From UHGV virus genome UHGV-0350075: DNA of 53,531 nt. One strand, written 5' to 3'. The notes below the pieces were generated by a model, which did no database searches, was not told where the DNA came from, and saw only the letters and a list, made by a program, of their open reading frames with translations. Source of the DNA: a virus. Numbering within the stretch: position 1 is the first letter of the stretch; each line of letters begins with the position of its first letter. The translations under genes were made by a program, and so were the position numbers. Positions 1,873-32,961 of the stretch are shown one piece after another.

Positions 1873-1965
1873 TCACCTCATATGGTATTCAATAAACCAC
1901 CTGATAAACAGGCATAAGGCAATAAAACCCCAGCAACAGCACATATAAAACAATGTATCGTCCAT
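1873..1965 (-). CDS. hydrophobic microprotein (30 aa, MDDTLFYMCCCWGFIALCLFIRWFIEYHMR)
   Basis: Own translation; ATG 1965 two nt after upstream stop (TAATTATGGACGA, same junction as array ORF at 43253); below track 60-aa cutoff. Confidence 0.35.
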   Translation of the reverse strand: MDDTLFYMCCCWGFIALCLFIRWFIEYHMR

Positions 1966-1967
1966 AA

Positions 1968-2186
1968 TTAAGCCTCAATAACACCGTAATCAAACGTGCC
2001 TAAATACCGTTCTATACTTACAACCTCAATACCATCAATGCACCGTTTCCACACAGACACCTGGCTTTCATTTTCTCTGAAGTGCATATTAGAAAGCACT
2101 TCATCGGCTGGATAGCTTTTCCCGGCGACGTAGGCATCATGTCCCACGCCACCTTCTATGCAATAAAGCATCAATTCGCGTGCCAT
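1968..2186 (-). CDS. hypothetical protein
   Basis: Track ORF 72 aa. Confidence 0.45.
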   Translation of the reverse strand: MARELMLYCIEGGVGHDAYVAGKSYPADEVLSNMHFRENESQVSVWKRCIDGIEVVSIERYLGTFDYGVIEA

Positions 2187-2266
2187 CTTGTTTCCCTCCG
2201 TACCGTAAACCTTTTGATTTCAGTTTACAAAACGGATTCGCGATCACAGTACAAAATGTATAGCTA

Positions 2267-2282
2267 TGTGATCGCAATCACA
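2267..2282. promoter_or_regulatory. CRP-like palindrome TGTGATCGCAATCACA
   Basis: Perfect TGTGA-N6-TCACA in intergenic 2187..2285, next to GTTTACAAAACGG and GTACAAAATGTA motif copies. Confidence 0.4.
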
Positions 2283-2285
2283 ATA

Positions 2286-2906
2286 TTAATGAAGTACGCG
2301 CTTTTCAGGTTCAGGCATTGGCTGTGACATTTTTCGTGCTTCATTAAGCATAGATATAGCCGCCTGCACGCCTAAATCATTTGCACGCATGTTAATACCA
2401 ACCATTTCGCCATAAAACAACGGCATGATCGCCATTACGTCTTCCTCGTTGTGCCCTTCATCAATGCACTTCTGTAACGCTTTGGCCTCAAATATTTTCT
2501 TCATTACGCCGCGCACAGAATAAAGTGCAGCGCTACCCATATGGTTTTCGTCTAACGGGAAGATAACAGCACTGCCGAACGCCAGCGGATCAAGCTCTTC
2601 CGGCACTGGCACGCGACCATATTCTTCTTCCATGCGTTTCACAAAAGTGAGGCAGAAGACATAACGAGCTACAGCCGTTTTTTCTTCATTATCCAAAGAC
2701 ACATAGTCGCGCATCGATGCTTCCATCACAATATCAGCAACCTGTAACGCCAGATTCAAATCAGCGTCATATTTGCCAGCTTCCATATCTTTCAATACTT
2801 CGTGATAATCTTTAATTTCAACTTCATGAAAACTTGCGTCTTCAGTGTAGCGAGTGATTAACATGCCTTCGCTGCCGAGTGAATAAGCCGTTTTGATGTC
2901 TTTCAT
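2286..2906 (-). CDS. hypothetical protein
   Basis: Track ORF 206 aa; no motif recognised. Confidence 0.55.
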   Translation of the reverse strand: MKDIKTAYSLGSEGMLITRYTEDASFHEVEIKDYHEVLKDMEAGKYDADLNLALQVADIVMEASMRDYVSLDNEEKTAVARYVFCLTFVKRMEEEYGRVPVPEELDPLAFGSAVIFPLDENHMGSAALYSVRGVMKKIFEAKALQKCIDEGHNEEDVMAIMPLFYGEMVGINMRANDLGVQAAISMLNEARKMSQPMPEPEKRVLH

Positions 2907-2919
2907 GATATTTATCCTT

Positions 2920-3252
2920 TTATAGTGGGTGATGCCATTTCATTTCAGTTTCTGAATTAAACGGGTTTCCTTCGCTTGAAAGGAATAAATCACGCTCCCG
3001 TTTCAGTTCTTCCGGGCTTATTTCTATTTCATCAATCTGACCGAACGATCCCGGCATCATTCGTTTTAAATCAGATAGCGGACGCATAAGGCCGCAACCG
3101 CGTAACAGCATATCGACCGCGAATTGTCTACGTCCGGCGGCGTCATTAAAGCGCCGCGCCCAGGGCACAACCACGATCCGGCGTTCGAATTTGATAAATA
3201 GTGATAGTTTGTTTGTTTCGCTATCATATGCTTTATGGAATTTAATTTTCAT
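2920..3252 (-). CDS. hypothetical protein
   Basis: Track ORF 110 aa. Confidence 0.5.
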   Translation of the reverse strand: MKIKFHKAYDSETNKLSLFIKFERRIVVVPWARRFNDAAGRRQFAVDMLLRGCGLMRPLSDLKRMMPGSFGQIDEIEISPEELKRERDLFLSSEGNPFNSETEMKWHHPL

Positions 3253-3433
3253 TTAACACCTCGACGTATTGCTCAAGATGCCATTTACCAACTTCATCCA
3301 TGTTTTCGTCGTATATAATGACCTCTCCGCCTTGCCTGAATCTGAAAGCAGTGGCTGTAAATTCACGGCCCCACCACGCCTTTAAGCGCTCCCCACCTTT
3401 CAGGTGTTTAACCTTTACTTCTTTTATAGCCAT
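3242..3433 (-). CDS. hypothetical protein
   Basis: Track ORF 63 aa, overlapping neighbours. Confidence 0.4.
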   Translation of the reverse strand: MAIKEVKVKHLKGGERLKAWWGREFTATAFRFRQGGEVIIYDENMDEVGKWHLEQYVEVLNEN

Positions 3434-3696
3434 ACGCCGAACATCCCATTCAGTCCGGCGAACAATTTCCGCCAGTGGTCTTCAACATAAGCCCGGAACG
3501 GCTTAACGCGAACATTGCGGGCCTTCAGTTCAATCTTGTCGAAGAAACGCGGCTCTATAATTGTTCCGTCCAGATATTTAACCAGGATCGGGCGCTCAAG
3601 ATCGTTATATGTCTTGTTCAGCACAACCAGACCAGGGTCTTTACGGTATTCCGGGAGCACAACAAGATCACCCGTTTTGATATTCATGAATGGCAT
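3424..3696 (-). CDS. hypothetical protein
   Basis: Track ORF 3424..3699 begins on GTG; ATG at 3696 (MPFMNIK...) preferred, overlapping upstream stop (TGATG). Confidence 0.45.
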   Translation of the reverse strand: MPFMNIKTGDLVVLPEYRKDPGLVVLNKTYNDLERPILVKYLDGTIIEPRFFDKIELKARNVRVKPFRAYVEDHWRKLFAGLNGMFGVWL

Positions 3697-3812
3697 CACA
3701 TCACCCCGCCGATATAGCTAATAATTGCCGCAGTCGCGCCAGCTATTACCACCATGAAGACGAAAGCGACCACACAGAAAACAGCCTTGACAGTATTTTT
3801 GTCGACTCGCAT
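3696..3812 (-). CDS. hydrophobic microprotein (38 aa, MRVDKNTVKAVFCVVAFVFMVVIAGATAAIISYIGGVM)
   Basis: Own translation; SD-like TGAGGT upstream; fills gap between annotated genes. Confidence 0.35.
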   Translation of the reverse strand: MRVDKNTVKAVFCVVAFVFMVVIAGATAAIISYIGGVM

Positions 3813-3819
3813 ATAAACC

Positions 3820-3927
3820 TCACATGTCAGTAATCAGCTTAACAATCGCCACAGTGATATAGAGTGACGCACTAAGGTAAACAGCCGCCACAGCAACGGC
3901 GGCGGATAACATTGCAATCTTTTTCAT
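3820..3927 (-). CDS. hydrophobic microprotein (35 aa, MKKIAMLSAAVAVAAVYLSASLYITVAIVKLITDM)
   Basis: Own translation; ATG 3927 overlaps stop of 3924..4148 (ATGA); GGAGGGTGG SD. Confidence 0.35.
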   Translation of the reverse strand: MKKIAMLSAAVAVAAVYLSASLYITVAIVKLITDM

Positions 3928-4148
3928 TTGCCACCCTCCGCAATGAACTTATCAAGCCATTTGTTATTAGCCAGCCGTTCGGCATCTTCGCCGAATGATT
4001 TACGTTCGCTTAATTCCTGTCGAGTAGGGAAAGGCCATTTATCAACCCAGCCCGCAGACGTCTCGAATTCGTACAGCCCGCCGCCGAAAGTGATAAGCTC
4101 ATCAGCGCCGTCAGGAATTTCTCCGTCAACTTCTTTATCTTCGATCAT
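3924..4148 (-). CDS. hypothetical protein
   Basis: Track ORF 74 aa. Confidence 0.45.
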   Translation of the reverse strand: MIEDKEVDGEIPDGADELITFGGGLYEFETSAGWVDKWPFPTRQELSERKSFGEDAERLANNKWLDKFIAEGGK

Positions 4149-4162
4149 GATTTAATACCTCA

Positions 4163-4447
4163 TTAATCGTTAATAACCTGACCCATACGCCCGCGATATT
4201 TGCGCATACGTGGATCGACATATTCAGGCCAATGCATATCATCAGCTTTCTGTAGTGGGTAAAAACTTGCCTGCCAGTTGTCGAACCATATTTGCTTTGC
4301 GTACAGGTCACTAAATCTTTTCGCCATTCGATCCGCTGCCGTGCCGCATAAAAAAAGCCCGCGATCGATTTGATCACGGGCTTCTCTTAAAACTTGCTCT
4401 TTTGTTCGCGGCGGCGGCGGTGCTTTTAAATAATCACCCATCGCCAA
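4163..4447 (-). CDS. hypothetical protein
   Basis: Track ORF 94 aa; sits beside erf/ssb like P22 recombination accessory genes. Confidence 0.45.
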   Translation of the reverse strand: MAMGDYLKAPPPPRTKEQVLREARDQIDRGLFLCGTAADRMAKRFSDLYAKQIWFDNWQASFYPLQKADDMHWPEYVDPRMRKYRGRMGQVIND

Positions 4448-4456
4448 CCTATTGAA

Positions 4457-4873
4457 TCAGAACGGAATATCATCGTCGAAGTCCATCGGCGGCGGATTAT
4501 TCACGTTATTATTTTGAGGCGGTGGCGCTTTCTGCTGCTGGCCTTGCTGCTGGCCTTGTTGGTTAACGTTCATGAATTCAAATTCGTTAACCGCCACTTC
4601 TACCGCCGTCCCCTTCGTGCCGTCGTTCCGGTCATATTGCCGAACATCCAGGCGACCGCTTACCACTATTTTTCCACCCTTGCGGATATGCGGCGCTAAT
4701 TTTTCCGCACGCTCACCAAATACCAGGCAAGTGACCCACATTGTCCGCTTATTATCGCCGTAGCCATTCGTTACAGCTAACGGAAAACTACCAATCGCTT
4801 TCCCGTTTTGTGTGTAGCGAACCTCCATATCATTACCGATATTCCCGCCCAGCGTGATTGAATTTAAACTCAT
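4457..4873 (-). CDS. ssb: single-stranded DNA-binding protein
   Basis: 138 aa; Gln/Gly-rich linker and acidic C-terminal tail ...DFDDDIPF characteristic of SSB. Confidence 0.85.
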   Translation of the reverse strand: MSLNSITLGGNIGNDMEVRYTQNGKAIGSFPLAVTNGYGDNKRTMWVTCLVFGERAEKLAPHIRKGGKIVVSGRLDVRQYDRNDGTKGTAVEVAVNEFEFMNVNQQGQQQGQQQKAPPPQNNNVNNPPPMDFDDDIPF

Positions 4874-5514
4874 TAACCCATCTCCCCGTTAAGCTCTGCT
4901 ACCCGGATGTCATAAACATCTTTTGCCTTGATTCGATGCTCCGATCCTTCCGGTAGTAATTTCCAGCATTTGCCAAATATTTCACGCAGCTTGTTAGCGT
5001 CCTGCGCTTTCGCTGCTGCATCACAGAAACGTGCTAATACTTCATCAGGATTTGGCGGCGCTTTATTCTGCTGCGGTTGTTGTTTTGGTGGGTTTTTCTG
5101 TTGTCGCGGCTGCTGGCCTGTCTGCTTCGCGTAAGCATCAGTATCAGGATCGCGAGCATCATCTATACAGAATAAACCGTTCAAAGCATATTTACGCGCG
5201 TAACTTGATGTTGCTCCTGTTAGCTGGCTGGCGTCCATACCCTTCTTGCTTTCTTCCTCCCTGGCATAAGCAGTTACCGCTATTACGTCTTCACCGTCGC
5301 TTAGCGTCGCCGTTGCTTTCACATAATAGCGATTGCCGATCAGGACAATTTCATCACTAACAGTCAGCGTGATATTTTGAAGCAGTGGTTTAACCGCCTC
5401 TAAAATATCCTCCGCCGACCTGTAATTATATCCACCAAAATTATTACGCTGATTTTTCGGCGCGTTCAGCGTTTGCTGAATCGTCCATAGCTTTTTATGT
5501 AACTCTGTTTTCAC
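4873..5514 (-). CDS. erf: ERF-family single-strand annealing protein
   Basis: 213 aa; N-terminal half matches P22 Erf as I recall it (LNAPKNQ, YRSAEDILEAVKPLL, GNRYYVKATAT, GATSSYARKYALNGLF). Confidence 0.8.
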   Translation of the reverse strand: MKTELHKKLWTIQQTLNAPKNQRNNFGGYNYRSAEDILEAVKPLLQNITLTVSDEIVLIGNRYYVKATATLSDGEDVIAVTAYAREEESKKGMDASQLTGATSSYARKYALNGLFCIDDARDPDTDAYAKQTGQQPRQQKNPPKQQPQQNKAPPNPDEVLARFCDAAAKAQDANKLREIFGKCWKLLPEGSEHRIKAKDVYDIRVAELNGEMG

Positions 5515-25900: not shown

Positions 25901-26605
25901 TTAACCTACCTTGCTGGAACCAGGGAAACAGGAAATCGGTAACGGATTTGGACGCGGGAAACGCAAACGACAACCGCTTAGACGGTGGCTGCATCTGTCG
26001 GCTTTAGGATCGCTTGTCGGCTCGTCTTTATCGTTTGCTACTGGTCCGCCAGCGTACATACACCCGTCGCCTCTGTATTGCCACTGGCAAACGTCAGCAA
26101 GGATGGTGCGCCCAGGGATAACGGCCTTATCAGCATCAATTGGCGTTGACAGCTCATATTGCACCTGATCCGCTGTTTCCTCGCTCATGGCCTCCACGAC
26201 GTAAAAAGATACAGCCTCAATAGATGGATCTGCATCTGGATTGCCGTTTGGGAAGTTAACGGCGTCCAGGTATTTTACTTCCACCTGGCGGCGCGTAACC
26301 TTCATTCCTCGCAGGTCGTTGAAGTCGTTATTCATCCCTGTGATTAGCCCGCCGATATTGGCTACAACCATTTGAGGCCGCGAATAAACGCCCTCGTTTT
26401 TCATTTCGAAGCCAGTAGCCTCGATCGGGTAGCTGTTGTAAGTTAATCCCTTCCAGATAACCGGGCCGTAATAGCCATTCGCGCCGGAATGGAAGCGGAT
26501 AACCTCGCCACCCAGGGGCGACAAGTCCAGTTCGAACAAGTCAATCACCGCGCCCACACCAGCGTCCACGGAATCAATAATCATCTCTGTAGGTATATTG
26601 CGCAT
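25901..26605 (-). CDS. L: minor tail protein (lambda L-like)
   Basis: Track ORF starts on GTG 26638 inside a regulatory palindrome; ATG 26605 with AGAAGGTGAG SD preferred; CxWxYRGxxC motif (CQWQYRGDGC) as in lambda L. Confidence 0.75.
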   Translation of the reverse strand: MRNIPTEMIIDSVDAGVGAVIDLFELDLSPLGGEVIRFHSGANGYYGPVIWKGLTYNSYPIEATGFEMKNEGVYSRPQMVVANIGGLITGMNNDFNDLRGMKVTRRQVEVKYLDAVNFPNGNPDADPSIEAVSFYVVEAMSEETADQVQYELSTPIDADKAVIPGRTILADVCQWQYRGDGCMYAGGPVANDKDEPTSDPKADRCSHRLSGCRLRFPRPNPLPISCFPGSSKVG

Positions 26606-26623
26606 TTTCTCACCTTCTGATTT

Positions 26624-26639
26624 TGTGATCTGCGTCACG
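26624..26639. promoter_or_regulatory. CRP-like site TGTGATCTGCGTCACG
   Basis: 9/10 match to TGTGA-N6-TCACA, immediately upstream of L SD. Confidence 0.4.
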
Positions 26640-26734
26640 CTAAATCATACCAAAATGGATTGATCGCGGTTTATACAATATGTATATTTTACTCAAACGG
26701 AAGCACAGTTAACAAAATGGCGCGGAGGTGTGAG

Positions 26735-26890
26735 ATGGCTGATAAGGTGTGGAGGTTGAAGGTATTCCTGTCAGGTGGCAGGGAAATGACTGTAGCTCTG
26801 TATAAAGACGAAGGCGAGGCACTGACTGACGCGCTATTACTCGCTGAAGACGAACGCGTTTTGGGGTACAGAATCGAACCTGTCAAATGA
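26735..26890 (+). CDS. hypothetical protein (moron islet A)
   Basis: Track ORF trimmed to ATG 26735 after GGAGGTG SD; opposite strand to tail operon. Confidence 0.4.
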   Translation: MADKVWRLKVFLSGGREMTVALYKDEGEALTDALLLAEDERVLGYRIEPVK

Positions 26891-26902
26891 GAGGTTAACG
26901 AA

Positions 26903-27250
26903 ATGCAAAAATATAGTCTTGATGTGTGGTTAAGTGGTTGCAAGGAGTGTTTCGGATTATTTGATAGCGAAGAGGCAGCTTTGGAAGAAGGAAGGATTCT
27001 TGAATGTAGTTTAGGCCATCCAGTGAAATATGCCGCTAATCCGGTGCAGATAATTGATGAGGTGGAAAACATGAATCCGAAAGATATTAACTTTAACGTC
27101 AATGTTGAATTTGCAGACTCTATGGATCAGGCTTGCCCTGGTGAAATCCACGCAAAAGGCTTCCCGGCTGACGATCCTGAAGCAAAACGCGAATACGAAA
27201 ATGCTGCTAAAGACTTCTGTATCGATAATTTAAGTTGCTTTGATAAATAG
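26903..27250 (+). CDS. hypothetical Cys-rich protein (moron islet A)
   Basis: Track ORF 115 aa; GAGAGG SD. Confidence 0.45.
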   Translation: MQKYSLDVWLSGCKECFGLFDSEEAALEEGRILECSLGHPVKYAANPVQIIDEVENMNPKDINFNVNVEFADSMDQACPGEIHAKGFPADDPEAKREYENAAKDFCIDNLSCFDK

Positions 27251-27258
27251 GCGGCAAC

Positions 27259-27507
27259 ATGGGGCGGCGCAATCACGGTGATTATGTGTACACGTTGAAA
27301 CAGGCCGCCCGCCTCATCGGTTATCATGAACACGAATTTATTGATTTGCTGATTGAGCGCGGGATACTGTATCAGGTCTGCTTAACGCTGTACCCGAAAG
27401 CGAAATACCTACAGGAAAAGTTATTCATCATCATGACGGATGAAAACCAGGTGAATCATTCATTCGTCACTGATAAGGGATTGACATACCTGAAGGGGGC
27501 GTTATGA
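27259..27507 (+). CDS. putative HTH DNA-binding protein (moron islet A)
   Basis: 82 aa; HTH-like YTLKQAARLIGYHEHEFIDLLIERGIL. Confidence 0.4.
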   Translation: MGRRNHGDYVYTLKQAARLIGYHEHEFIDLLIERGILYQVCLTLYPKAKYLQEKLFIIMTDENQVNHSFVTDKGLTYLKGAL

Positions 27508-27584
27508 GATGTGCGAAAATTACGTTATGGAAGTGATTATTATCATCATTGGATTGTTATGTATTCTGCTATCGACACTATAAA

Positions 27585-27601
27585 CCCCGCTTCGCGCGGG
27601 G
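27585..27601. terminator. bidirectional hairpin terminator
   Basis: CCCCGC-ttcgc-GCGGGG with T-rich flanks on both strands, between convergent islet A and reverse-strand gene. Confidence 0.4.
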
Positions 27602-27607
27602 TCGTGT

Positions 27608-27808
27608 TTATACGCCATCAAGCAAAAATAATACTTCCCTACCCTCTCTCGATCTGCATCCGACATACCCGTCACCAACATCATGAAGATACCAGATCTC
27701 GCCATTGTCTGCCTTTACAGTAAGATCTTTAATTTCATAGTCGTCAAACAATGTAAAAGCGCCAGTGCGGTCCACTACACAAATACCATACATATTAACC
27801 TCCATCAT
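27608..27808 (-). CDS. hypothetical protein
   Basis: Track ORF 66 aa; start overlaps M stop (ATGA). Confidence 0.45.
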   Translation of the reverse strand: MMEVNMYGICVVDRTGAFTLFDDYEIKDLTVKADNGEIWYLHDVGDGYVGCRSREGREVLFLLDGV

Positions 27809-28158
27809 CTGACGACTTGCTCAAATGTTGCGTTTAGCGTGTACAAAGACCCGTCTTTAGTCATGCTCCATCGGCGGCAAACAAAAAGCCTTTGCACGTT
27901 ATCCATCGACGGCGACCAGTAAAAAGCCTCGACCGCGCCGCGCGCCCTCAAGAATGCTTCCGCCTGGATTGCTACGTTTTCACCATCACCACATCCGGCG
28001 CTACTGCCTTTAAATACCAGGGTGTAGCTATCAAGCAATGGATTGATGCCTTTTACCTGTCTTTGCTCATAACCATCGCCCAGCTTAACAACGGATACGT
28101 CCGGCTCCCTGGTCACGCTGTAGCTTCGTTGTGGCGTCCACCTGAACACTTCCGGCAT
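27805..28158 (-). CDS. M: minor tail protein (lambda M-like)
   Basis: 117 aa; FRWTP...VKLGDGYEQRQ resembles lambda M N-terminus (FRWKV...VRFGDGYSQRA). Confidence 0.7.
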   Translation of the reverse strand: MPEVFRWTPQRSYSVTREPDVSVVKLGDGYEQRQVKGINPLLDSYTLVFKGSSAGCGDGENVAIQAEAFLRARGAVEAFYWSPSMDNVQRLFVCRRWSMTKDGSLYTLNATFEQVVR

Positions 28159-28190
28159 AAAACCCCCATAAGTTACATTTTGTATATATA

Positions 28191-28215
28191 TTTACGCGCT
28201 TCTACGCGAAAAATG
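28191..28215. promoter_or_regulatory. conserved 25-bp box TTTACGCGCTTCTACGCGAAAAATG
   Basis: 22/25 identical to box at 40378..40402 upstream of portal; lies upstream of M. Confidence 0.4.
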
Positions 28216-28326
28216 AGATCTTCATCACAATGATTATAGCTAGTTTACAAAATGGCTTCACATAGTACGCAACAAGATGTATATAGAAAGCAAGAAGAAA
28301 AGCAGTACCAACGAAGGAGGCCCAAA

Positions 28327-28482
28327 ATGAAACGCTATGTAGTGGTAATGCTAAACAACGCATTCGAACAAGTGGAAATAGCAATCGTTAAGGGTTTCGA
28401 CGACGCATTCAAATACGGTCAATTCATGATGAATGCAAAAGAAGATGAATACCGGGACTTCTTCCTGAAGGCACTTAACTAA
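28327..28482 (+). CDS. hypothetical protein (moron islet B)
   Basis: Track ORF trimmed to ATG 28327 after AGGAGG SD; candidate sigma70 promoter TTCACA-17-TATATA upstream. Confidence 0.45.
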   Translation: MKRYVVVMLNNAFEQVEIAIVKGFDDAFKYGQFMMNAKEDEYRDFFLKALN

Positions 28483-28499
28483 GGATGATGGGGTGAGTT

Positions 28500-28754
28500 A
28501 TGAAACTGGTAGCGATTGACAAAAATCTGAAAGCACAGAAAAACGCGCCGGGACATGTAGTCAAAAAAGCAAAGGAACTTTTGAACGCGTTTTTAAACAA
28601 GAATGCGTCACCCAAAAAATTGAAAGACGGTTACGGCTACGCCTTCCGCGCCAATTTAGACTGGCGAGTCTATAGCCAGGATCTGAAAGAGTGGGTGATT
28701 GTTGAACACCATAAATTCAATGAATTGTCTGGCGTTCGCGGTTGCCATAAGTGA
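28500..28754 (+). CDS. hypothetical protein (moron islet B)
   Basis: Track ORF 84 aa; basic; 17 nt after previous gene. Confidence 0.45.
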   Translation: MKLVAIDKNLKAQKNAPGHVVKKAKELLNAFLNKNASPKKLKDGYGYAFRANLDWRVYSQDLKEWVIVEHHKFNELSGVRGCHK

Positions 28755-28872
28755 GGTGGGTATGGAGGACGATAAATTCACCTGGAGGGAGATCTGGAAT
28801 ATTTGGTTGGTGATGTTTTCTCGCAGCTATATAGCCAGAAACGGAAGATTGTAATTTGCGGAGGAAAACAAA

Positions 28873-29043
28873 ATGAAAAATCCGGCAAATAAAAGCAACG
28901 TAAAACGCATAGCATGGGTGCTAAAATATATGGATAGCAAAGGGGATACATATACATGCCCATTTTCCAGGTATACTGATGCGGTATTTGCCAGAAGTGT
29001 ACACGGAGGGAAAATTGAAAGAGGATATACAAGATTTGAGTAA
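28873..29043 (+). CDS. hypothetical protein (56 aa, moron islet B)
   Basis: Own translation MKNPANKSNVKRIAWVLKYMDSKGD...; GGAGGAAAACAAA upstream. Confidence 0.3.
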   Translation: MKNPANKSNVKRIAWVLKYMDSKGDTYTCPFSRYTDAVFARSVHGGKIERGYTRFE

Positions 29044-29081
29044 ATTTATTCACGAAATCAATAACATAATGAAGGTTTATA

Positions 29082-29261
29082 ATGATTATTCATGAGACTG
29101 AAGAATGCAGAAGGATTGATCTTAGTGTTGAAGATGACGGAAGATTATGGATCGTGAGCGACTGCGAGATGATTGTAATAGACAAAAAGCAAGCTGACGA
29201 ACTGATAAGAGCATTACAGCTTTATGCAAACGGCGAATTTAAAAATGATGAAATTGAATAA
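29082..29261 (+). CDS. hypothetical acidic protein (59 aa, moron islet B)
   Basis: Own translation MIIHETEECRRIDLSVEDDGRLWIV...; ends 5 nt before terminator. Confidence 0.3.
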   Translation: MIIHETEECRRIDLSVEDDGRLWIVSDCEMIVIDKKQADELIRALQLYANGEFKNDEIE

Positions 29262-29266
29262 AAATA

Positions 29267-29295
29267 GCCCCGGCATTGTGCCGGGGTTTTGTTTA
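29267..29295. terminator. bidirectional intrinsic terminator
   Basis: GCCCCGGC-attgt-GCCGGGG then TTTTGTTTATTT; between convergent islet B and tape-measure gene. Confidence 0.55.
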
Positions 29296-31506
29296 TTTCC
29301 TGCGAGGTTGCAACATTCCGCCAGGTCTGGATGATTCGCGGTGCATCAGGCCCATGCAGATCCTTTCCATGTCCTGTTGTAGCTTTTTGGCATCCTCATC
29401 GCTCCATCCATTTTGTGGGTAAACACTAATCGGCGCGTTTATGCTAACGCTACCACCACCAGCACCGCCAATGTCGCGATTTGGTATTACCCTGCCGTTG
29501 TCACCCGGAATCATGTACTGACTCCCATTGCTCGCCTGAAAGATCTCCGGTTTACCGTGTTCGCCGACCTTATAGAGGCTGCCCGCAGCCACCGCACCGC
29601 CGTTATAACGAGCGCCAGCCAAGCCAAGCGCTTTTGCTCCAGCCACACCAGTGGCAAGACTCGTACCCCCCACGGTCGCCGCGCCGCCCATCGTGGCAAC
29701 GTTTGCCAGGTATGCAGGAGTAGCCCACGCAGATCCCAAAGCGGTAGCCTCTGCCAATGCTTTAGCTGTTGCGGCTGCGCTGGCGGCCTCACCTATCAAT
29801 TGCTGCTTGACCCATTCAGCCCCCATTTGAACAAGCGTACCGATAACGGAGGAAAGGATTGTATTGCCAATGTTAGCCAGCGCCTGTTGCCAGCTTTGAG
29901 TGCCGTTAACCAGGCCGACGAGCGCATTTGTTGCAGAACCGCTCATTGCATCAACGGCATCACCTAACAGTTGGTTGCTCATTGACTGCGCCTTATATCG
30001 CTCCCATTCAAGGGTGAGCATTTCCTGTGCGTGCGCCCTTTCTTGCTCCCTCATATATTGTTCGGTAGCGCCCAAATCGGTAAGCATTTGCTTGCGAACG
30101 GTCCATTCATTTTGCGCCTGCTGTATTGGGTCTAGTTCACCGCGCTTCTGATCCAGTGATGGAATCATTTTGTCCCATTTTTCTTGCAGCCTATTGATCG
30201 GGTCGTTAATTTCCGCCAGAGTTTCGCGCAATTCATCACCAATTCCCTTCATTGCACCTTTGTATTCAAGCATGGTTATTTTCCCGGCTTTAAAGGCTGC
30301 ATCTATGGCTTTTTGTGATTCAAGCGCTTTGCGCATTGCTGCTGAATCTTCGTTATATGTATCTGAAATGCGCACACCCTGTTCCGCAAGGCGCTCGGCT
30401 TCTGATTTGCCGGATTTTTTACCTTTCCTGCCTTTGCCCTTACCAGGAGGTTGAGGCTTAAATGTTATGTGACTTACACCAGCTTGCCCCGTGGGGAGAG
30501 TAGAAACAAATGGCTGTTCTCCATCGCCAAACCATCCAACCTGTTTCGCTTGAGCGCGGAACAAACTAAGCCCAGGCACTATACCCTCAAACGCCCCAGC
30601 CAATAGCCACAATTTGTCAGTTAATGACGTGCTGTCGCTCGCCAGGGACTTAAACCAGCCGGATAATATTTGGACCTCACTAGAGATAGCTTGTATACCA
30701 GTAACCACCAAATCGGACACGCCAAGCGTTTGGTTTAGCGTGTCGATTAGCAGATCGAAGTTGTTTTTTAGCTCGTTAAATGCCTGATCTGTTGTTGTTG
30801 GCAGCTTTGCGAAGTCCTTCTCTATGTCTTCTGCGCCAGCAAGAATTGCGTTGGTAACGTCCTCGGCTGTTAACTTACCATCAAGCATTCTTGCGCGAAG
30901 TTCGCCCATCGAGATTCCCATTTGTTTGGCTACGCGCCGCCACACCTCTGGCATATTTTCAAGCACAGAATTGTATTCTTCCGCGCGAACAATGCCGCCC
31001 GTCAGTGACTGCCCTAACTGGCGAAGTGCGTTTGACATTTCATCTGAGGAGCTACCGCCGATACGCCCTATTTTTTGAAGCGAGTCGGTAAGCTGCAATA
31101 CCTGCTGACTTGTCGCGCTGGTATCCTGAAGGCTGGCCTTTAGGCTTTCCCACAGCTTCCCGGTGCTTTGAACGCTCATCCCTGTACGATTCGATATCTG
31201 AATAATCCCGTCAAAATTCGATTTTGCGTCAGCAATGCCACTCGATAATCGCGTCACCCTGGCGCGTAGCAGATTCACGTTATCTGCGATCTCCAGGAAT
31301 TTTTTTGCAGCCATGACCATCATTCCAATGTTCACGGCTTTGGATAAATTACTTATCGTGGTGTTAAGTGACTGAACTGATTTATCTGTGCGTTTAGCGC
31401 CTTGCTCGATTTTATCAAGCGAGTCCTCCGCCTTGCGTTGAGCTACGAGTAACCGTTCGGTTTTTGCGTCAACGGTATACTCAATCGTGCCTACATTTGT
31501 GGTCAT
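29293..31506 (-). CDS. tail tape measure protein
   Basis: 737 aa; helical/coiled-coil, Gly/Ala-rich C-terminal part; between chaperone-position gene and M. Confidence 0.8.
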   Translation of the reverse strand: MTTNVGTIEYTVDAKTERLLVAQRKAEDSLDKIEQGAKRTDKSVQSLNTTISNLSKAVNIGMMVMAAKKFLEIADNVNLLRARVTRLSSGIADAKSNFDGIIQISNRTGMSVQSTGKLWESLKASLQDTSATSQQVLQLTDSLQKIGRIGGSSSDEMSNALRQLGQSLTGGIVRAEEYNSVLENMPEVWRRVAKQMGISMGELRARMLDGKLTAEDVTNAILAGAEDIEKDFAKLPTTTDQAFNELKNNFDLLIDTLNQTLGVSDLVVTGIQAISSEVQILSGWFKSLASDSTSLTDKLWLLAGAFEGIVPGLSLFRAQAKQVGWFGDGEQPFVSTLPTGQAGVSHITFKPQPPGKGKGRKGKKSGKSEAERLAEQGVRISDTYNEDSAAMRKALESQKAIDAAFKAGKITMLEYKGAMKGIGDELRETLAEINDPINRLQEKWDKMIPSLDQKRGELDPIQQAQNEWTVRKQMLTDLGATEQYMREQERAHAQEMLTLEWERYKAQSMSNQLLGDAVDAMSGSATNALVGLVNGTQSWQQALANIGNTILSSVIGTLVQMGAEWVKQQLIGEAASAAATAKALAEATALGSAWATPAYLANVATMGGAATVGGTSLATGVAGAKALGLAGARYNGGAVAAGSLYKVGEHGKPEIFQASNGSQYMIPGDNGRVIPNRDIGGAGGGSVSINAPISVYPQNGWSDEDAKKLQQDMERICMGLMHRESSRPGGMLQPRRK

Positions 31507-31523
31507 GATTGTTACTCCACTTT

Positions 31524-31539
31524 TGTGATCTGTGTATCT
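31524..31539. promoter_or_regulatory. CRP-like half-palindrome TGTGATCTGTGTATCT
   Basis: Left half TGTGATCT conserved, 18 nt upstream of tape-measure start; CCATTTTGTATAAAG copy at 31572. Confidence 0.3.
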
Positions 31540-31764
31540 ATTTTATACAAATTGTCTTTACTATAACGACTCCATTTTGTATAAAGAGGCTAAAGGAAAG
31601 GGATAGAGTAAAGGGATTTAAAATGACCGGATAAACCGGAGGAAGTAAAAGAGGACAAGAAAATGAAAAACGCAAACTATCGTCCCAACGAACATGAACG
31701 CTATGCGGACTTCATAGAAGAAATGTTAAAAGCACTTAAAAACAAAAATTAATCGAGGCGGGTT

Positions 31765-32262
31765 ATGAAACTGTTAGTAAAAGTTGCGGTAGCTGCGGTC
31801 ATGGCGGTATTCGCGGCCAATGCAAATGCAAGTAATGAAGTTAGCAAGATGTGCGACGCTATTTATCCAGCCTACGAAAAAGCATATACAATGGCAAATG
31901 TAAACTTCTTTTCAATTGGTAGGCACGGCGTTAACTGGGAGTATTTCATCTTAAATGAAGATAGCAGGACCAAAAAAGGTGACGCTGAAATGATAAAAGC
32001 GCACGGTGAAAGTTTCGCTTTCGTGATGGCTGCTGCTGAAAACAAACAAAATGATAATGAATTTAAAAACTTTGTCGCTGGACTTGCCATCATGGCTGCT
32101 GAACGGGCGATAAAAGATCACGACAATAACGCTTATGCCGCTGCCGACGGGATGGCGTTAGATAGGGTAAGAATTGACTTCAAAAACATGTGCGTCAAAG
32201 AAGGTGCTAACATGTATAAAAAAGCAATAGATAAACACCACGAATATTCTATAGGTTATTAA
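31765..32262 (+). CDS. secreted/periplasmic protein of unknown function (moron)
   Basis: 165 aa; signal peptide MKLLVKVAVAAVMAVFAANANA; opposite strand; followed by terminator. Confidence 0.55.
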   Translation: MKLLVKVAVAAVMAVFAANANASNEVSKMCDAIYPAYEKAYTMANVNFFSIGRHGVNWEYFILNEDSRTKKGDAEMIKAHGESFAFVMAAAENKQNDNEFKNFVAGLAIMAAERAIKDHDNNAYAAADGMALDRVRIDFKNMCVKEGANMYKKAIDKHHEYSIGY

Positions 32263-32265
32263 AAA

Positions 32266-32292
32266 GGCCCGGATCTACCGGGCTTTTTCTTG
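32266..32292. terminator. intrinsic terminator after secreted-protein moron
   Basis: GCCCGG-atcta-CCGGGC followed by TTTTTCTT. Confidence 0.5.
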
Positions 32293-32961
32293 CTCGCGAT
32301 TTTTCATTCTTTTTAGTATCTCCATAGCACCATTCATTCCATCGTCATAAGCCTTTTTATCCAGCAATACATTTGGGCGTTTTTGTTTGTTTCTTGCTTC
32401 TGGCGGCGTTTTAGCGCGTACAGCGGCCCTATATCCGGTCATTGTCATATTCCACGCTTCTGATTCTGATAACCCCAGGTGAGCTACGGCAGAATAAACG
32501 AATTCCAGCACGTTAAAAGTCGGCTTATATTCCCCTTCCCGGATCTCTCCGGCGTCTTCTTCTGGCCCGTCACCGATTAAACCGTGATACATGCAATGTT
32601 GCGCCAGCGTGATAACGTCACTGGTCGGCATCAGTCCGGGTTTTAGTCGCAATTTGCCGGAAGGAGTAAACCTACATTCACCCAATAACGGGCCTATTTC
32701 GTCTTCTGAGCAACATTTCAGGATGTGTATTGACGTTTGCACTATCTCACCATAACACCGCGCCAGAATGCGATTGCGTAGGTCTGGATCTGCTGGCAAT
32801 CGTGATGGATATTTGCCACCGTGGATGGTTGCGAAGTATTCGACCAGTTCTCTGTCACTGCCGATCTTAGCCATTGCAGCGAAACAGGGATTAAACACAT
32901 ACCGCCTGCCGTCTACCACCGCCGCAAATTGTCCTGTTCGAACATGAATCATAGTTTTCAC
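32275..32961 (-). CDS. putative tail assembly chaperone (by position)
   Basis: 228 aa between major tail and tape-measure genes; no diagnostic motif recognised. Confidence 0.4.
   Translation of the reverse strand: MKTMIHVRTGQFAAVVDGRRYVFNPCFAAMAKIGSDRELVEYFATIHGGKYPSRLPADPDLRNRILARCYGEIVQTSIHILKCCSEDEIGPLLGECRFTPSGKLRLKPGLMPTSDVITLAQHCMYHGLIGDGPEEDAGEIREGEYKPTFNVLEFVYSAVAHLGLSESEAWNMTMTGYRAAVRAKTPPEARNKQKRPNVLLDKKAYDDGMNGAMEILKRMKNREQEKAR

Follow-up and report, generated by a model that had tools for sequence, protein, structure and literature searches.

The viral genome UHGV-0350075 (53,531 nucleotides; hereafter the window) carries, at positions 28327 to 29261, an islet of small forward-strand genes that is very probably an accessory ('moron') operon, five genes long and placed antisense within the late tail operon. 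Its second gene, o84, encodes an 84-residue protein with a predicted RelE-type fold. The complete reading proposed here, in which the operon provides a conditionally active effector of this fold that is silenced by antisense transcription, has in our estimate an even chance of being correct; a role in defence is possible and, on balance, doubtful. The locus belongs among ordinary phage accessory-gene islets and is not proven to be a toxin-antitoxin system.

Toxins of the RelE/ParE fold are normally viewed as partners in an obligate pair. In the present case all members of a prevalent gut coliphage group carry the toxin-like gene, its presumed antidote can be lost, and relatives of the gene occur in virulent phages. 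If o84 is active, it offers a tractable case of a solitary or conditionally controlled RelE-type effector, and of a phage that avoids self-harm by antisense placement of the gene in its own late operon; should o84 be inert, the locus would still show that the tape-measure/M junction of lambda-like tails is a hot spot where cargo is repeatedly inserted. In neither case is layout alone a ground for annotating the locus as toxin-antitoxin. Moron islets, the RelE/ParE superfamily and the toxin-like label in RefSeq were already known; what is moderately interesting is that the presumed antidote can be dispensed with and that the family has spread into virulent phages.

The islet between the tape-measure gene and gene M

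The window is a temperate coliphage of the mEp021/mEp-immI type. Its region 27800-29800 has 83-94% nucleotide identity to Escherichia phages mEp515, mEp010, mEp044, MagusPhagus, mEp013, mEp554, and mEp021; the mEp-immI group to which these relatives belong consists of Nus-dependent, non-lambdoid temperate coliphages of approximately 53-55 kb, and the islet is not discussed in the paper describing their genomes (PMC11893012). A long co-directional late region on the minus strand comprises the genes for terminase, portal, DUF6260, DUF6246, tape-measure, and M, followed by L, K, I, and J. The islet lies on the forward strand, opposite to this late operon, between the tape-measure gene (PF20155; 29293..31506, minus strand) and gene M for a minor tail protein (PF05939; 27805..28158, minus strand). 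Its GC content is 0.37-0.44, compared with 0.48-0.59 in the flanking tail genes, and both GC and AT skews change sign over it, matching forward-strand coding.

A preliminary description of the region listed four forward open reading frames (ORFs) of 51, 84, 56, and 59 amino acids (aa). All four are present (28327-28482, 28500-28754, 28873-29043, and 29082-29261), each with a sequence resembling a Shine-Dalgarno (SD) site 5-9 nucleotides (nt) upstream: AAGGAGG for o51, GGGGTGAG for o84, GGAGGA for o56, and GAAGG for o59. A fifth gene had been overlooked; o30 (28762..28854, forward strand), preceded by the SD sequence GAGGTG, encodes a tryptophan-rich protein of 30 aa, is annotated in mEp515 and MagusPhagus, and behaves as a conserved cassette. 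The first gene, o51, encodes a nearly invariant acidic protein (isoelectric point, pI, 5.1; PHROG 29810) that occurs only in this phage group, and o84 encodes a protein that is basic, as described earlier (pI 9.9; PHROG 1525). The two distal genes are variable cassettes, o56 for a basic protein (pI 9.8) and o59 for an acidic one (pI 4.4; PHROG 13627). Ratios of non-synonymous to synonymous substitution (dN/dS), calculated by the Nei-Gojobori method over all distinct nucleotide versions of each gene (9-28 per gene), are 0.06 for o51, 0.08 for o84, 0.07 for o30, 0.15 for o56, and 0.20 for o59. The preliminary description had made its proposal depend on the conservation of these frames; since dN/dS spans 0.06-0.20, the sequence comparison indicates that all five are real genes under purifying selection. 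Versions of the first ORF with 68 or 76 aa, called in some databases, are artefacts whose extra part is non-coding, because related loci have indels of 1-2 nt between the -10 element and the SD sequence. No family was found for o56 in Pfam, PHROG, PADLOC, or NCBIfam, and no match to it in the Protein Data Bank (PDB) by sequence; a PDB sequence search with o59 gave no meaningful match, and an NCBIfam scan of the islet proteins returned nothing useful.

Upstream of o51 is a predicted σ70-type promoter (28257..28285, forward strand), with a -35 hexamer TTCACA (28257-28262), a 17-nt spacer, and a -10 hexamer TATATA (28280-28285) with TG immediately before it; transcription is predicted to start near 28292. 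The same hexamers and spacing had been noted earlier, at a position 3 nt too far to the left, and they are comparatively conserved: among 32 distinct upstream sequences, TGTATA never varies and GGCTTCA hardly does, and the spacer of approximately 17 nt between them is freely variable. Conserved hexamer blocks around a variable spacer are the pattern expected of a promoter, and from this we infer promoter function. In a simple consensus scan, promoter-like matches in the region are no commoner than in shuffled sequence. The unit ends in a predicted bidirectional intrinsic terminator (29266..29288, both strands), a GC-rich hairpin between an A-run and a T-run that lies 4 nt from the tape-measure stop codon. 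This hairpin, previously placed at 29267..29295, scores as an intrinsic terminator in scans of both strands. A GC-rich hairpin stands beside the tape-measure stop codon in every related locus, in three unrelated sequence versions, which argues for selection on termination itself. The earlier picture of an autonomous forward-strand unit running from promoter to terminator is supported.

The intergenic region between M and o51 holds further blocks (28159-28256) that are invariant or nearly so across the 32 distinct sequences. Among them are TTTACGCGCTTCTACGCGAAAAAT (28190-28213) and ATTATA (28233-28238), the latter a perfect TATAAT when the minus strand is read. These blocks may form a promoter directed leftward, or a regulatory site, that serves M and the tail genes downstream of it, beyond the bidirectional terminator.

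Presence and absence of the islet genes at this junction, a comparison that the preliminary description had proposed, was examined in 41 related loci (designated by L numbers) gathered through the neighbouring M protein and by other routes. Content varies around a conserved o51/o84 core. The only gene found in every locus is o84 (41/41); in one of them, L042, it appears frameshifted in an A-run at its 5' end (approximately 4637-4660), where a sequencing error is possible. The o51 gene is present in 38 of the 41 loci, o30 in about 20-32 depending on the criterion, o56 in 21, and o59 in 17. Less frequent are a 49-aa gene overlapping the o84 stop (six loci), a gene for a 95-aa membrane protein (four loci), an HNH endonuclease gene (mEp515 only), and a gene for a zinc-ribbon protein (mEp021 only). 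The smallest islets, those of L015-L022, consist of o51, o84, and the terminator and nothing more. In content, the islet is a conserved two-gene core (o51 and o84) with exchangeable cassettes, here o30, o56, and o59, between promoter and terminator. In mEp515 the HNH endonuclease gene overlaps the end of o84 (L001 3430-3936), and in mEp021 the zinc-ribbon gene and further genes stand in place of the o56/o59 cassettes (L003 4036-4512); these insertions identify the space after o84 as an active insertion point.

Every locus whose M protein is at least 80% identical carries an islet at this junction, and, when loci are compared by M-protein relatedness, the islet is found only in this phage group. 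In phages with M proteins approximately 67% identical, the tape-measure gene lies 2-5 nt from M, as in the H-M junction of lambda, or the junction holds other, unrelated inserts, some of them antisense. Because such phages show either a tight junction or unrelated inserts, comparison of these loci marks the tape-measure/M junction as a recurrent cargo site and a general hot spot. The inserts of the lambdoid phages with M approximately 67% identical (L047 4680-4919, L048 4510-4908, and L052 approximately 1960-5000) include antisense genes for proteins of 79 aa and 132 aa, the latter a membrane protein, as well as a 3-kb block containing antirepressor-like genes.

Morons of lambdoid phages, and gene 15 of HK97 beside the tape-measure gene, are autonomous inserts consisting of promoter, gene, and terminator. 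The islet has the same features: its own inferred promoter and a terminator, lower GC content than its surroundings, a position between genes that are adjacent in related phages, and a content that varies among close relatives. It differs from these morons, which are single genes, in being a multi-cassette array antisense to the late operon, and its expression in the prophage is presumed.

The o84 protein and its family

The preliminary description had assigned o84 to no family and suggested a search with hidden Markov models. In that search o84 matches Pfam PF24732 (ParE_like), a family of the RelE/ParE superfamily, over residues 19-74 with 32.1 bits (gathering cut-off 24.4; E-value 1.2e-7). 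All retrieved relatives of o84, close and distant, are likewise assigned to PF24732, and the RefSeq name of the gene in E. coli prophages is 'ParE family toxin-like protein'; as applied to o84, these labels denote structural and sequence resemblance. Among 1.84 billion representatives, an exhaustive HMMER profile search retrieved no more than 12 proteins with E-values up to 0.001, and the o84 family is therefore small and divergent. A literature search found no paper on PF24732 and no characterised member of the family.

Structure prediction points to the same superfamily. An AlphaFold2 model of o84 from an alignment of 12 close relatives alone has a predicted local distance difference test score (pLDDT) of 47.5, which rises to 86.9 when distant HMMER relatives are added. 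The latter model shows an N-terminal β-hairpin, a helix at residues 18-32, three strands at 47-69, and a helix at 70-77, and it has the helix packed on an antiparallel sheet of three to four strands that defines a RelE-type fold. It matches the toxins HigB, YoeB, YafQ, and RelE, with Staphylococcus aureus YoeB as the top Foldseek match. The best match in a PDB sequence-profile search is also S. aureus YoeB, weak (E-value 0.15) and in register. Yersinia phage fHe-Yen9-04 and Klebsiella phage RaK2 supply the best matches in the viral structure library BFVD, named 'ParE-like toxin domain-containing proteins' and with template modelling (TM) scores of 0.70-0.84. Going by the model, o84 very probably has the RelE/ParE fold, and it appears nearer to the RNase-type members of the superfamily (HigB, YoeB, YafQ, and RelE) than to the ParE gyrase poisons.

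The resemblance to characterised type II toxins (YoeB, HigB, YafQ, RelE, and, more distantly, ParE) extends to small size, basic charge, and the predicted order of the fold, namely N-terminal strand(s), a long helix, a three-stranded antiparallel sheet, and a C-terminal helix. A KKL...G...R(L/V) motif of o84 is in register with the core of YoeB. The o84 model differs from RelE in having a β-hairpin in place of the first RelE helix, and o84 differs from these toxins as a group in that it has no recognisable antitoxin partner and its gene survives without the upstream gene. Within the family K40 and R56 are invariant, the latter aligning with a conserved arginine of RelE and YoeB; most members keep H70 and have an aromatic residue at position 73, and within the phage group the C-terminal H83-K84 does not vary. 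Using hhalign, the o84 family gave a weak alignment, in register, to a single YoeB sequence, and no usable alignment to the E. coli RelE and YafQ sequences.

The o51-o84 pair and alternative roles for o84

The preliminary description likened the adjacent 51- and 84-aa genes to a toxin-antitoxin pair. In a canonical type II module, o51 would be a labile antitoxin that binds and neutralises o84, the pair would stabilise the prophage or trigger abortive infection, and the other three genes would be unrelated cargo. The layout is as described: a small acidic gene is followed 17 nt later, in one transcription unit behind one promoter-like site, by a small basic gene, and the latter belongs to a toxin superfamily. 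The two genes stand together in 37-38 of the 41 loci and make up the whole islet in L015-L022, and o51 is never found away from o84; among 5,426 complete E. coli genomes, blastn detects it in 34, each with a single copy at this locus. What does not hold up is an obligate partnership. In L008, L034, and L035, a clean absence of o51 leaves the same promoter region directly adjoining the SD sequence and o84. The complete genome of E. coli UMNK88 has the same o51-less arrangement with o84 intact and no o51 elsewhere in the genome (blastn, sensitive to approximately 70% identity), and in E. coli MFDS1019527 a 1-nt deletion interrupts o51 at codon 6 (L106 590-745; a sequencing error is possible), again with o84 intact. 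A toxin gene should not be kept without its antitoxin, and o84 is intact without functional o51 in these five loci. It also remains under selection there: between L008 and L034/L035, 27-28 of approximately 49 synonymous sites differ with few non-synonymous changes (dN/dS 0.04-0.10), and the o84 protein of L008 is identical to that of L004, which contains o51. A classical type II system does not predict that a labile antidote can be lost by deletion and its toxin gene nonetheless kept under selection. Nor do the two proteins vary together. The 12 distinct o51 proteins are at least 76% identical, compared with 23 distinct o84 proteins that diverge down to 58% identity, and in toxin-antitoxin pairs the reverse is usual; seven o84 variants, sharing as little as 62% identity, occur with a single o51 sequence, and the pairwise identities of the two proteins correlate with a Spearman coefficient of 0.25. 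No antitoxin, DNA-binding, or other family was found for o51 in Pfam (including a scan of nine variants), NCBIfam, PADLOC, or the PDB (sequence and profile searches), its sole family being PHROG 29810, and because the promoter spacer is variable it contains no conserved operator palindrome. A canonical type II module is thus unlikely, and o51 is better described, on these comparisons, as a possible but non-essential partner of o84 than as a required antidote. The real partner might instead be encoded after o84, as in modules of the HigBA/MqsRA type, with o30, o56, and the 49-aa overlapping gene as candidates. This is conceivable because the o51-deficient loci keep o30 and o56 and because distant PF24732 genes (L010, L092-L094, and L096-L102) have an adjoining ORFan of 85-107 aa after the toxin-like gene, often overlapping it, as the 49-aa gene overlaps the o84 stop codon in six phage loci. 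It is, however, very unlikely: L015-L022, L024, L027, L038, and L039 have nothing before the terminator, or no recognisable o30, o56, or 49-aa gene, and the downstream proteins of the distant loci have no detectable homology to each other and belong to no known family.

A role in the lytic cycle is suggested by the distribution of the family. Searches of phage genomes with tblastn found o84 relatives in the virulent jumbo phages K64-1 (L104), RaK2, and Muenster (there named 'YafQ-like ribonuclease toxin'), in PBECO4-like jumbo phages, and in the virulent phages Sortsne (L103) and IME279 of approximately 42 kb, where the relative lies directly upstream of holin and lysin; all of these virulent-phage genes are co-directional with lytic genes. 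On this alternative, o84 and other PF24732 proteins of RelE fold would serve host shut-off, selective mRNA decay, or counter-defence, and the islet would be an early or middle lytic unit, to which the occurrence of distant members in arrays of small early-type ORFans and the tolerance of o84 to loss of o51 also conform. We regard this as improbable for the islet, whose antisense orientation to the late operon, host-type promoter and terminator of its own, and foreign composition make up a classical prophage-expressed layout; other members of the family, in chromosomal islands beside Tn7-like or BrxR genes, fit use on the host side.

Under the favoured reading, that of an antisense moron operon with a conditionally active effector, the islet would be transcribed by host RNA polymerase, between about 28292 and 29288, both in lysogens and during early infection. 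Once the prophage is induced, late transcription under antitermination would read through the terminator, cross the islet in the antisense direction, and lower its expression; N-like and Q-like antiterminators are established in the mEp-immI group (PMC11893012). By analogy, such a shut-off would follow the logic of the 'noncontiguous operon' demonstrated for Tai of phi80 (PMC11364771) and Tha/Ith of S. aureus phage 80alpha (PMC11087260), prophage defence genes that lie antisense inside a phage operon and are reciprocally regulated with it. The likeness of Tai/Ati and Tha/Ith to the islet is the placement of gene(s) with their own promoter opposite to the surrounding phage operon. Tai, Ati, Tha, and Ith have no homology to the islet proteins; the analogy is one of architecture, and the islet is known from its sequence. 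The o84 protein would be a conditionally active effector, directed at RNA or the ribosome and of low intrinsic toxicity, that is of use to the lysogen, with the exclusion or abortion of other phages as its most plausible function, and o51 would be a dispensable modulator of o84 or an independent factor and not an obligatory antidote. More speculatively, PF24732 proteins in general, o84 among them, could be phage-borne, antitoxin-independent RelE-fold effectors that are harmless until an infection cue or that act on competitor RNA, wired antisense in mEp-immI prophages, with o51 as a lineage-specific regulator or an unrelated effector; this generalisation is rather unlikely.

Several observations weigh against the favoured reading. 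The catalytic residues of characterised RelE-type RNases, for example E46/R65/H83/Y84 in YoeB and K52/K54/R61/R81/Y87 in RelE, are not clearly kept in the o84 sequence: in YoeB numbering, Glu46 aligns with Lys39 of o84, and Arg65 with position 50, which is Arg or Asp depending on the allele. None of the five islet proteins matches any PADLOC-DB model at E-values up to 1, and the earlier suggestion of a small Abi module finds no abortive-infection or defence model among their matches in that scan. The consensus scan does not call the islet promoter, because its -10 hexamer (TATATA, or TATACA) lacks the canonical T at position 6. All five o51-deficient loci keep o30 and o56, either of which might encode a downstream antidote. 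The presence of PF24732 members in virulent phages means that the family is not tied to lysogeny.

Members outside the phage group have varied neighbourhoods. In Serratia phage OS31 (L105) the relative, annotated as 'HigB-like protein', comes immediately after a ParB-like gene, and the association recurs in Enterobacter chromosomal islands (L096-L100), often with overlapping stop and start codons; chromosomal members adjoin Tn7-like transposition genes, BrxR, or a ParB-like gene. Because members occur in virulent phages and in mobile-element and chromosomal neighbourhoods, PF24732 is, by these gene contexts, a general small cargo of phages and mobile elements, tied neither to lysogeny nor to one partner. 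At three distant loci (L094 3001-3484, L102 593-1076, and L010 2003-2529), the PF24732 gene is followed by an overlapping gene of approximately 92 aa without a known domain; the pair adjoins BrxR in L094 and the Tn7-like TnsA/TnsB genes in L102, and it looks like a toxin-first two-gene module in mobile-element cargo. A conserved partner in the distant loci was considered and rejected: a downstream ORF of approximately 90 aa recurs by position, with no mutual homology and no family.

Other forward-strand units and motifs in the late region

The islet is the second of its kind in the late region. A first forward-strand islet (26735-27507), located between L and a small gene adjoining M, has the same architecture, with a promoter-like site at 26660-26688 and a terminator-like hairpin at 27584-27602. 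Its genes encode a 51-aa protein, a 115-aa ORFan, and an 82-aa protein with a KilAC/ANT antirepressor domain (PF03374). The 51-aa first genes of the two islets are not paralogous 'leaders' (hhalign probability below 1%). An operator common to the islets was also rejected, as comparison found only short, chance-level repeats; the window has 14 copies of the repeat ACGCG-N5-ACGCG where 5.8 are expected, a count reached in 1 of 100 shuffles. An Rfam scan of 26000-32500 for RNA genes gave only sub-threshold chance matches.

A third forward-strand unit (31765-32262) separates the tape-measure gene from that for DUF6246. Its product of 165 aa has an N-terminal sequence resembling a signal peptide and no Pfam match. 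The gene at this site differs among related loci; L008 has a VasI-domain protein there.

The motif TTTATACAA(A/T)(A/T)TG or its complement occurs at 26670-26682, 28181-28193, 31542-31554, and 31573-31585. These copies mark the left edge of each forward islet, approximately 25-40 nt ahead of the start codons of the minus-strand genes for L, M, and the tape-measure protein, and they form an inverted pair in front of the last of these genes; the motif could reflect chance or a common signal.

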